Positions 14,057-62,246 of a stretch of DNA of 64,000 bases are shown piece by piece (position 1 is the first letter of the stretch; the number at the start of each line of letters is the position of its first letter). The translations under genes were made by a program, and so were the position numbers. The DNA is from Eledone cirrhosa (lineage: Eukaryota), in assembly GCA_964016885.1 (NCBI GenBank), contig OZ024743.1, positions 367,040,001 to 367,104,000 of the forward strand, given 5' to 3'. The notes beneath the pieces are model-generated. The model was given only the letters and a program-made list of their open reading frames with translations. It ran no database searches and was not told where the DNA came from.

Positions 14057-14420
14057 TTAAAAGTTAAACAAGGTTCAATGAATAAATCAAAGAATGAGTT
14101 TTACAATAGATTGGAAGCACTCAACAGTTATTGTTTTCCAGAGTTATTAATATTAATTCAAAATATTAACAAAATAGATATTCTTGTGATCAAGTATATT
14201 TTATTATACATATTTCAGAGGTACTGAGTTAACTTCAACTCATGGTACTACCATGACTGAATCTTAACCATCTACTATGTCAGGGTATGTCATGCATCAT
14301 CTTATTTTATCTGATGAGGACGTACTGTTGAAGTTAACTCAGTACCTCTGAAATATGTATAATAAAATATACTTGATCACAAGAATATCTATTTTGTTAA
14401 TATTTTGAATTAATATTATA
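14057..14420. mobile_element. Fold-back element in (TA)n; inverted arms 14148-14239 / 14327-14418
   Basis: About 92-bp near-perfect inverted repeat with (TA)n on both sides. Confidence 0.85.
14303..14369 (+). ncRNA. Type-I hammerhead ribozyme
   Basis: TATTTTAT-CTGATGA-GGAcGTACTG(loop)CAGTACcTCT-GAAA-TATGT-ATA|ATAAAATA: 8-bp stem I, extended stem II, near-palindromic stem III, AUA site (cut after 14361). Confidence 0.8.
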
Positions 14421-14599
14421 TATATATATATGTGTATATGCATATGCACACATAGACAAACACACATACACAGACATACATATTATTGACTGACTTGAAA
14501 AAGAGTACTCAATGCCAAAGTAGAGTTTAAATATGTATTTATTATAGCTAAGTGGTGAGCCTTGTTACTCTGGAGTTTTACTTACACATTTGAGTTTTA

Positions 14600-14920
14600 C
14601 TTGCACATACAAATCACATGTCCATACCAATGCAGTCTTCTCTCCTGCACACCACCTAGGATTCCTCTGAAACGCAGCTTCTCCCTCAGCTTTTCCAAGC
14701 TGCCTTTCTCGTACGCGTACATTACACATTCAACAAAGCATGGCTGCTTCATTTCTATCCAGTCTACACATATCCTCTGCAGTCACAGCCCATGTTTCAC
14801 TACAATGCAGTGTCACTATTCACACACAGGCATCATACAGTTGTCTTTTTATACATAGGGAAAAACTTTTTATGGTCAACAGTGGAAGTAGCTCTCTAAA
14901 CTTTTTCCCTCCTATCTTAT
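14600..14920 (-). mobile_element. Decayed RTE fragment
   Basis: Reverse complement resembles the KKFRELLPLL...LHWYGHV region. Confidence 0.7.
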
Positions 14921-15208
14921 TTCATAAGTTTTCATTATCATCACCATCATCAAAATCCCCTTCCTGTTCAACAGTAGCTTCCTGGTATTGCTGATACTCA
15001 CTGATTAAATCATGCACGTTGGACTCAGCTTCTGTGAATTCCATCTCATCCATACCCTCTCCAGTGTACCAGTGTAAGAAAGCTTTACGCTTAAACATGC
15101 TCTTACTGCGCCCTCCTCCACTACTAATTAAACCACCTAATTAACAGAAGCTATCAACCACTTCTATGCACCCTTCCTGTAACTGGAAAAGGTTTATATA
15201 TATATATA

Positions 15209-60055: not shown

Positions 60056-61981
60056 ATGATATAAAAATATCAATAATATTATAAAAATATATATGAAATT
60101 ACAACTATGACAATTACAACTTTTACATCATTACTTTACATCTGATTTCTATGCAGGCATGAGTTAGATGGGTTGTCACTCTCTGAGAGCAGATAGGTTG
60201 GAGTGATCTCATCTTGCACATATGTTCCATATTTGGCATGTCTTCTACAGCTGGATGTACTGCCTCATGTCAATCTCCTTATAGAGTGTACTGGGTGCAG
60301 TTTTCATGGCACTAACACTACTGCCTTACAGGTGCTCTGGGTGTATTTTATCAAGGCATCGACACTTACACTTTTCAGAGCGTACTAGGAGCATTTCATT
60401 GTAGAGAGGTTGTCACATGCTCGGCCAGATTAAAAACTACTTTTAAAACTTATATTTTCTTTGTTTGATTGCCAAACACTGCAGCCTCTGATCTTCATCA
60501 CATTTAACTTTAGTGTCACAGTGCTTGTAATAGTGAAAGGGTATTTTGCATTATGGCATATCACTAATCAAGCCAGTCCTGTGTCATCTTTGTGAGGTTC
60601 AGTTTCTTGAGGCCATTCTTCACAACTTTGTTCTAAGTCTTCAACAGGTTCCATCTCATTCAAGTGCTTGACAATTGGTTAAAAAGGAATCATTCGTAGT
60701 TATTTTACACATTGTGATTAATAACCTGGCAAGAAACAGAATTAACAGCTTGGGTTCAATATTCAGTCAGATATGATTCCATGAATTTGCTTGGATAGAT
60801 CAACACTCAGATACTGCAAGTAAATTTTCCTCTCAAGTAGTTGCTGGTCTCATACACACATGCACACACACATGCAGACACACAATTAACTAAAATAGCA
60901 ACATCAACAAAAGTACAAAAACGGATTGGCATACAATAACACTAGCCCAGCAGAAGCAAAGTTCAAAAACAGAACAAAGTACAACTACAAAAATAACAAA
61001 ATAAAGTACAAAAACGGATCGGCGTATAATAACAACAAGAAACGAGACAAAAATTTAAAAAACAGAGCAGCGTAGAATTACTTACACACTGAAGGATGTT
61101 TGACCGAATATCTATAGATTCATAACACTATATAAATTTGCAATAGCGGCTTCTCTTAAAAGATAAATGAATTGTATTTGATCTTGGGATTGCTCAATAA
61201 CTACTTTATCTATATATATAAAACTGAGGTTGTCTGTCTGTCTGTCTGTCTGTCTACTAAAACGGTCGGCACACATCTCCTCCTAAACCATACGTTCAAA
61301 TTTCCGTGAAATTGCTACTTATAGATGAAGGTCCGGCGGAGACATCGGTCAAAAACATTTTCAAATCGACCTACGCCAAGTGCAAAAATCAAATTTGTAA
61401 TGTATTAATTTTTCAGTTCAAATGTATAAATAGAGATGAGAGACGAGTTATTTCCCTTTTATGGCGTCATTTGTTTATCTATTTACGTTACGGACAAACT
61501 ACGCGTGCAAAAGTACAAAAAATACACGAACAGTTTTCGGACCTGCAAAATTTTAACCTACAAAATTCATGAGTTCGAAGTTTCAACATTAAGCTTCCAT
61601 TTTGCTTCATTTCCATTAAAAAGTCGTTTAAAACAATATTTTTACTTGAAAACAAGCCTATTTGAATACATCATAAAACAAGCAAATATTTTGTAAAAAT
61701 ATATATAATCTCGAACGGAAAAAATGAAATGAAATTTCATTTCTCACTCTTAGTACGGCGTGTTACTTAAATATAAGTATGTATACGTACATACATATAT
61801 GGATACAGACATACAGTAGTATGTATATATATATACATACATGCACACATACATATATGTACGTATGGATTCACCGAACATTTATTATAATGCTCGGTGT
61901 GTTTGTAAACAAACATCCCGAATTAAGCCGTACAGTGTCTAGCAACCATCGTTGCTCATTTGTTCAAAACTGACAAAGGAA

Positions 61982-62022
61982 CGCTGTACTAGTTTCAAGC
62001 TTATTAGCTATCGTCAGCAACG
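61982..62022 (-). ncRNA. Minimal type-I hammerhead ribozyme
   Basis: Minus strand: CGTTG-CTGACGA-tAGCT aata AGCTt-GAAACTAGTA|CAGCG. Confidence 0.8.
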
Positions 62023-62203
62023 GCTGAGAAGCCTAATTTGCATATCGAGTGAGAAATGAAATTTCGTTTCATTTTTTCCGGTTATCGTTTTCGGTGCGCC
62101 CGGCAGATTAACTCACTCGATATGCAAATTAGGCTGCTCAGCCGTTAATATGCATAAGGAAAGTATATACTTTCAGACGTTCAATCATCTGGCAGGAAGG
62201 TAT

Positions 62204-62246
62204 ACGTTGCTGACGATAGCTAATAAGCTTGAAACTAGTACAGTGT
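62204..62246 (+). ncRNA. Minimal type-I hammerhead ribozyme
   Basis: ACGTTG-CTGACGA-tAGCT aata AGCTt-GAAACTAGTA|CAGTGT; palindromic stem III ACTAGT, GUA site. Confidence 0.82.

Follow-up and report, generated by a model that had tools for sequence, protein, structure and literature searches.

Inner ends of head-to-head Penelope-like insertions in Eledone cirrhosa pile at one base per family, a probable capped RNA 5' end

The window analysed here is a stretch of 64,000 nucleotides (nt) from Eledone cirrhosa (assembly GCA_964016885.1, contig OZ024743.1, positions 367,040,001 to 367,104,000, forward strand), set in a 3.0-Gb AT-rich genome. Throughout the window (TA)n flanks inserted copies of inverted Penelope-like elements (PLEs), whose families include ones with hammerhead-like ribozyme motifs. 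Families were labelled by the window position of the ribozyme core or of the apex: A (14311), B (21547), C (50721 and 51915), D (52042), E (62210), F (34302) and G (34783). All the inverted repeats listed by a first-pass annotation, which had been made from the letters alone, were confirmed in place by self-alignment. Judged from their sequence, with the motifs checked in family B, they are genuine head-to-head insertions of Hydra-type PLEs in (TA)n.

A natural copy of family B carries P0001, a 708-amino-acid open reading frame (ORF) with the motifs YRDD of reverse transcriptase (RT) and AYIGLT of a GIY-YIG endonuclease. Read by eye, and for family B only, P0001 has DKT instead of DKG, a CxCx5C linker, CxxC and CxH beside the conserved E and N, no CCHH, and RWR at the place corresponding to the RWK motif. 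The family B unit measures 3,259 bp in locus L536, slightly beyond the Hydra range (generally <3 kb). Pfam gave 0 matches for P0001 and for the three ORF pieces in the window, and a single sub-threshold GIY-YIG match for an ORF piece linked to family D; the Atlas look-alikes of P0001 (0.96-0.99) bear HTH_animal, GIY-YIG and RVT_1. Families A, C and D are located downstream of ORF pieces homologous to P0001 (33-56% identity). Pattern matches in the genome number 2,266 (A), 38,106 (B), 19,063 (C) and 20,597 (D). A broken ORF of another Penelope-like family, 35% identical to P0001, lies at 32950-33828 (-).

Hammerhead-like motifs were identified by pattern matching. Searched at E up to 1, Rfam yielded no hammerhead family for the window, and the predicted folds were not better than shuffles in 8 of 8 cases (z -1.28 to 0.93). 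The core is of canonical type (CUGANGA) in families A, D, E, F and G. Family B has CAGAAGA rather than CUGANGA, with CUU as the predicted cut triplet, and its hammerhead (21502-21552; 38,106 pattern matches) is possibly variant or inactive. For family C a guessed canonical pattern gave no match; the native core is of the U3-A8 type, a variant described in PMC4209133, and loop II is ~35 nt long. Family D falls into subfamilies with a compensated stem I, AGCTTC/GAAGCT vs AGATTC/GAATCT. Other hammerheads were seen beside these. The family at 28853-29380, also found at L574, L578, L583 and L586, has a U3-A8-type core and a long loop II as in family C, with the core deleted in the window copy. Another minimal hammerhead family, with 24 copies among the fetched loci, stands at 28650-28700 (-), unpaired and with no inverted partner here. 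Family E (61716-62451; also L158, L162, L163, L176 and L177) forms a retrozyme-like tandem unit of ~450 bp in which a hammerhead but no ORF was seen; two copies lie 454 bp apart, and the family is inserted head-to-head like the others.

Copies were collected with junction-free queries, namely tail or 3' stretches, supplemented by the earliest pattern matches along contig C1 and by copies flanking the loci already collected; the central hits of junction-containing searches (L001-L030, L311-L370) were excluded. The palindrome 51857-51973 had appeared to be copied as a fixed unit; this came from a query containing the junction, and tail-only queries gave varied junctions. The sample comprises 528 arms (A 126, B 134, C 163, D 105), is biased toward young copies, and was mapped to natural long copies that are themselves among the long arms. 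Families E, F, G and the 50667 subfamily were viewed only; automatic mapping was too noisy and they were excluded from the tallies. Ends were called by a 5-match rule, as a stricter 7-match rule (G in 32/46 vs 60/292) misplaced nine family D ends.

In each family the inner arm ends begin to pile at one A, with few ends directly upstream of it. Arms ending in -40..-6 compared with 0..+34 stand at 3:48 (A), 7:67 (B), 10:104 (C) and 5:64 (D). A 20-nt zone holds 46/89, 53/87, 117/153 and 61/76 of the ends in families A to D, where a uniform distribution would give 9.6, 17.1, 30.3 and 16.0. Long arms, which run beyond -60, number 36, 47, 8 and 25. The start A lies 64 nt upstream of the core in family A; in B and D it is the base with which stem I opens, and in C it falls inside loop II. 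Breakpoints are thus strongly non-uniform in the 528 arms from four families, and the proposal of the first-pass annotation that the boundaries are non-uniform and arise at integration is supported. Its further proposal, that the ribozyme hairpins are the usual turning point, is not supported: the ends pile at one A per family and not at the stems or the cut site.

The reasoning behind that proposal was that hammerhead stems stall or turn the polymerase on uncut or circular RNA. Ends in the ribozyme span do exceed the uniform null in B, C and D, two arms of the window stop in loop II away from the start, and 4 of 131 pairs, all by stem III (L039, L053, L374, L270), are joined through overlaps of at least 13 nt in a ribozyme stem. 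In family A, however, the span holds fewer ends than expected (20 vs 32.2), the hot spot is located 56 nt before the ribozyme, and stops per nt amount to 0.24% inside the ribozyme, 0.42% just upstream and 2.64% in the start zone; 20 ends in the 67 nt of the ribozyme vs 18 in 41 nt (p 0.24) make no excess inside. The edge in family C is sharp and in mid-loop II, only 19 of 161 arms pass the start zone, and few reach the 5' half of the ribozyme. Stalling at stems also leaves unexplained the extra G described below, and three of the eight boundaries first cited for it are not junctions. Such stalling or turning, and with it the hairpins as the usual snap-back or switch point, is largely refuted as the main cause and seems very improbable. 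The frequent hits on the ribozyme would come from the position of the RNA start on it rather than from any turning of the polymerase by its stems.

The predicted cut site makes no peak in family C (2/163 ends at +40 to +42). In family D a cut-site pattern gave 194 matches vs 3,299 for the start, the two patterns being of unequal length, and 14 of 30 inspected cut-site matches were true ends (a script flagged 16, two of them substitutions by eye). That the arms span the predicted cleavage site was confirmed. In L091, L095 and L109 (family B) and L145 (family D) the outer arm end lies about at the predicted cut site, which could be priming on cut RNA or mere TA matching.

The start base carries a signature. 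A non-native G stands before the start A in 36 of the 50 arms ending there, vs 68/309 other ends (p 9e-12), and with the partner-templated cases removed the difference persists (25/38 vs 32/158, p 1e-7). The G is borne by 16 tail arms and 20 tail-less arms, and by 7 of 10 arms without a detected partner, several of which are joined directly to a microsatellite. Base counts before the start were made genome-wide by hand on the first 100 pattern matches per family: G60 C23 A17 in family B (of 3,519 matches) and G60 A29 T11 in family D (of 3,299), where one base further upstream the count reads G5 A4 T91 (of 100). Upstream, at -29 to -34, a TATA-like 7-mer is found in 4/4 A, 7/7 D and 4/5 C references, with a chance of 0.02 per site. 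Families C and D thus show the marks of a capped start (TATA-like box, pyrimidine-A start and extra G); B has a strong G and a weak TATA-like box, A a strong box and a weaker G, and the candidate start of F falls short. An extra G has been ascribed to the cap at full-length L1 5' junctions (PMC11702581), and the transcription start of Drosophila Penelope lies within the pseudo-long terminal repeat (pseudo-LTR; PMC2377424). We considered the start base as a splice acceptor and rejected this, because no AG precedes it; nor was a common upstream exon found.

We consider it rather probable, on this evidence, that the base at which the inner ends pile in each family, often behind an extra G, is the capped 5' end of the RNA, and that the arms are two separately primed, end-joined cDNAs. 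RNA polymerase II would start in the pseudo-LTR ~30 nt past the TATA-like box, on or near the hammerhead. The two outer ends of the arms, which are fixed and adjoin (TA)n, sit in the 5' leader of such an RNA, in family B at ~+69 and ~+159, before the ATG at +202; the ATG of family C is at +231. The element's protein, judging from in-vitro work on another element, may cut (TA)n on both strands and prime one cDNA per target end, and with one priming site per cDNA only one of the arms would carry the tail. cDNAs started from the 5' copy of the sites would hit the RNA end after 70-160 nt, often adding a C opposite the cap; some would stop earlier, and priming at the 3' copy of the sites would give the long arms. 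The cDNA ends would then be trimmed and joined via the short overlaps or short, often templated inserts seen at the junctions.

The fixed base could instead be a processed RNA end or a strong block, such as a bound protein or a structure, with the G reflecting an untemplated C added at any hard stop. In its favour, the base of families B and D coincides exactly with the first position of stem I, at the edge of the structure; the TATA-like box of B is weak, and the cap is deduced from sequence. Yet the TATA-like boxes of A, C and D stand at a fitting distance, the other ends show no excess of G (22%), and the base of A and C lies away from any stem boundary, so that we regard this explanation as improbable.

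The arms of a pair bear on how the second strand was made. One tail per pair was found in 126 of 131 short pairs, both arms being tailed in 2 and neither in 3. Neither arm is a plain copy of the other, because the tail-less arm is often the longer (by at least 5 nt in 40/126 pairs, by at least 20 nt in 18/126); the tail arm is longer by at least 5 nt in 30. The 131 junctions comprise overlaps of 1-4 nt (50), blunt joins (15), inserts of 1-10 nt (46), inserts of >10 nt (13) and overlaps of at least 5 nt (7). Among junctions of family D with both arms complete (first 50 of 211), 28 read C-W-G and 10 CC-W-GG, 5 are asymmetric and 7 other. A or T runs of ~15-25 nt occur at some inner junctions (L327, L376/L377, L296), as if ends had been tailed before joining, and L243 and L166 have head-to-head arms from two different families, possibly chimeric insertions.

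A single cDNA might instead run off at the RNA start, fold back near its 3' end and prime the second arm itself, the hairpin being later opened, trimmed and cut at a second site, which would leave the tail on one side. Symmetric templated inserts at the complete D junctions, a recurrent AATTC/GAATT junction in family C that reads as a small hairpin, and subfamily variants shared between the arms all speak for such fold-back; snap-back after full-length cDNA has been seen for R2 transgenes (PMC11371274), and the 2013 study interprets junction palindromes of Penelope as self-priming on an antisense template (PMC3846280). Against it, in 40/126 pairs the tail-less arm has at least 5 nt missing from the tail arm (as much as 2 kb at 21478-23739), the extra G occurs on both kinds of arm and on arms without a detected partner, and both outer ends are fixed and abut (TA)n. 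We think fold-back unlikely, though a more serious competitor than any other explanation weighed here.

Several observations weigh against two cDNAs ending at a capped start. The choice of start bases and of the 20-nt zone followed inspection of the data. The TATA-like box of family B is weak only. In family C the bases before the start are G48 C44 A8 (first 100 of 6,571 matches), C being nearly as frequent as G, and in family A, with G44 T48 A8 (first 100 of 348), G is not dominant and the mapped-arm test taken alone gives p 0.07. Predictions of the G set before testing were borne out in B, not as worded in A, and failed in F, where the predicted start showed G in 7/41 matches, most of them substitutions in long copies. 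None of the roughly mapped families E, F and G passed a cap test. The mostly symmetric D inserts match nearby sense sequence and are also compatible with fold-back in cis, and a control pattern for double-ended D junctions was swamped by another repeat. In A, C and D, though not in B, the arms of a single insertion resemble each other more closely than arms from separate insertions do; this would fit one RNA copied twice and also the copying of one cDNA.

Palindrome centres might also have been deleted or converted after insertion, or the palindromes might be assembly or amplification chimeras. Internal deletions do occur (62022), and palindromes are unstable. Such an origin is hard to square with what copies in their thousands show: their outer ends are fixed, a pair has a single tail, the junctions vary, the arms have diverged, and an additional G recurs at one base. 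An artefact is unlikely because the junctions differ from copy to copy, the arms have diverged (in family C by a mean of 1.3 mismatches per 45 nt) and short-read contigs of run X1, a run that is possibly the source sample, span a D-type apex (record 7); contigs over 51782-52166 are mixtures of many copies and give no confirmation of the window's own junctions. A post-insertion or technical origin of the pattern is accordingly the remotest of the explanations.

These arms were likely copied from linear, uncut templates. The first-pass annotation had proposed uncleaved or re-ligated, circular RNA; the uncleaved part is upheld and the circular part is not, the fixed stop and extra G pointing to a linear capped 5' end. 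A circular template is not needed, because the arms stop at a fixed base behind the extra G as from a linear capped end, and a circle has no such end. Tandem read-through units without a fixed 5' stop, the mark of a circular intermediate, are not seen in the short arms of A to D; family E forms tandem units. More tentatively, the capped leader of one RNA may be copied twice, once per cut strand, and the tens of thousands of palindromes may amount to a fossil map of start sites. In family C the core promoter would then lie within loop II, the 5' ribozyme copy would lack its catalytic half from the outset, the read-through 3' copy being complete, and the position of the start would switch the hammerhead off.

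The features of the window are collected in Table 1. Of the eight boundaries that the first-pass annotation had placed inside the ribozyme, five are genuine inner junctions (14327, 23599, 50721, 51915, 52037) and three are not junctions (62022/62205, 34299/29539, 34792). At 14327, and at 23599 (set against 21534), it is the tail arm that stops in loop II, and the partner begins at the family start at 14247 in the first case and is the 2-kb arm with the ORF in the second. The apexes 50721 and 51915 belong to the same family, C, and are not native stem-II apexes as had been thought; each is rather a short palindrome or a 1-nt overlap, in native loop II or at its edge and no more than ~10 nt from the family start. 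In the pair at 51781..51973 the ends fall inside loop II of the U3-A8-type hammerhead and the 5' half of the ribozyme is missing from both arms. At 52037 both arms end at the family D start, the first base of stem I. The break 62205/62022 reflects sequence lost within one arm, between two AACG repeats, the actual turn lying some 100 nt upstream of the core. At 34299/29539 a native long copy and a separate short copy 4.7 kb off are 94% alike, vs 95-98% between the short copy and unrelated copies. Position 34792 is the outer end of its pair.

Table 1. Copies and pairs of Penelope-like elements in the window
Feature	Position	Strand	Remarks
Family A, tail-bearing arm	14058..14239	-	Inner end in loop II, +80 from family start
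Family A, tail-less arm	14247..14418	+	Starts at family start A (ACTACC) after 7-nt insert 14240-14246; hammerhead motif ~14303-14369, core 14311
Family B, long tail-less arm	21478..23598	-	Contains the 3' end, a hammerhead-like motif (21502-21552) and, in three pieces, a broken RT/endonuclease ORF that is 75-91% identical to P0001
Family B, short tail-bearing arm	23599..23739	+	Inner end in loop II, +19 from family start
Further family, head-to-head pair	28853..29380	.	Tail on right arm; U3-A8-type core of other copies deleted; short arm stops ~30 nt downstream of predicted cut
Family F, short copy	29453..29539	-	Between (TA)n tracts, ends 3 nt before core; pairing with copy at 34302 not supported
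Family F, long copy	33805..34404	+	Native sequence runs on through 34299
Family G, pair	34544..34860	.	Inner junction near 34660, ~110-120 nt upstream of core; 34544/34792 is loss of outer part of left arm
Family C subfamily, pair	50667..50862	.	Apex 50721 at GATC/AGATCT palindrome ~6-9 nt downstream of family start; tail on right
Family C, pair	51781..51973	.	51781-51916 (-) with tail, 51916-51973 (+) without; inner ends of both 1-3 nt downstream of family start
Family D, pair	51980..52168	.	Arms 51980-52039 (-) and 52036-52168 (+, with tail); both reach family start, overlap AGCT
Family E, pair	61716..62451	.	Inversion junction ~62047-62053; 62022 break is internal deletion in left arm

Other repeats share the window. 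A three-armed inverted repeat at 30454-31423, 99% identical and belonging to a repeated family, shows no hammerhead core and had gone unmentioned in the first-pass annotation. Several copies of a non-LTR retrotransposon RT with the motif YADD, which we take to be RTE-like, lie at 15145-17514 and in other ORFs at 2257-50186; one has an open frame of 789 amino acids.

The head-to-head architecture is already known: insertions of endonuclease-bearing PLEs have pseudo-LTRs, an inverted 5'-truncated copy and a single terminal tail (Craig et al. 2021, PMC8557442; Arkhipova et al. 2013, PMC3846280). Like these, the insertions described here have head-to-head arms, a tail on one arm (126/131), short palindromes or overlaps at the junction, (TA)n targets, and TATA-like and initiator-like motifs in the pseudo-LTR. 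The tail is ~80-90 nt here, compared with 30-40 in the insertions of those two papers, whose consulted parts neither link the inner boundary with a start site nor mention an additional G. With the Hydra clade (PMC8557442) family B shares DKT, CxCx5C, CxxC and CxH around E/N, the lack of CCHH and insertion in (TA)n, and differs from it in the 3.26-kb unit and RWR for RWK; the non-canonical ribozyme cores of B (CAGAAGA) and C (U3-A8, long loop II) differ as well.

For Poseidon of the anole, two internal RT start sites that define the tail, extension of both target strands and AT-rich targets have been described in vitro, with unprocessed RNA as the main substrate (Frangieh et al. 2024, PMC11167929). 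The fixed outer ends and the single tail in 126/131 pairs of the families studied here fit this extension of both target strands from two internal sites on uncut RNA. The Poseidon sites are inside the ORF, whereas those here are in the 5' leader; inverted junctions and the template's 5' terminus in genomic copies are not addressed in the parts of that paper seen. Minimal PLE hammerheads and a circle model come from Cervera and de la Pena (2014, PMC4209133), and animal retrozymes from bioRxiv 10.64898/2026.07.22.740005. Like these, our families have type-I motifs in the pseudo-LTR, a U3-A8 variant and opposite-strand pairs 100-700 bp apart. Unlike the circles, our junctions speak for templates that are linear and capped; in B, C and D stem III is long, and the likely promoter of C falls within loop II.

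Formation of the inverted ends of PLEs and the role of their hammerheads are treated as open questions in the papers cited. In the open-access literature on Penelope inversion, promoter, cap and octopus hammerheads (mostly listings) we found no paper that ties inversion boundaries to a capped start, nor an extra G or a promoter inside loop II for PLEs. If the reading favoured here is true, one rule, internal priming near the 5' end followed by run-off at the cap, would explain the short inverted insertions, the single tail and the uncut template. It would also supply exact predicted start sites for four families, at ACTACC (A), AGTTTC (B), AGTCCAG (C) and AG[A/C]TTCC (D), argue against circular templates for these copies and suggest a promoter within a ribozyme loop.

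In L1 twin priming, two separate portions of one RNA, without overlap, are copied from opposite ends of the target. In the families described here a single stretch is copied into both arms, and either arm can extend to the 5' end; the process would work like twin priming, although the L1 pattern itself is not found. With L1 these insertions have in common an extra G of the kind ascribed to the cap, and inversion junctions with features of end joining (PMC11702581).

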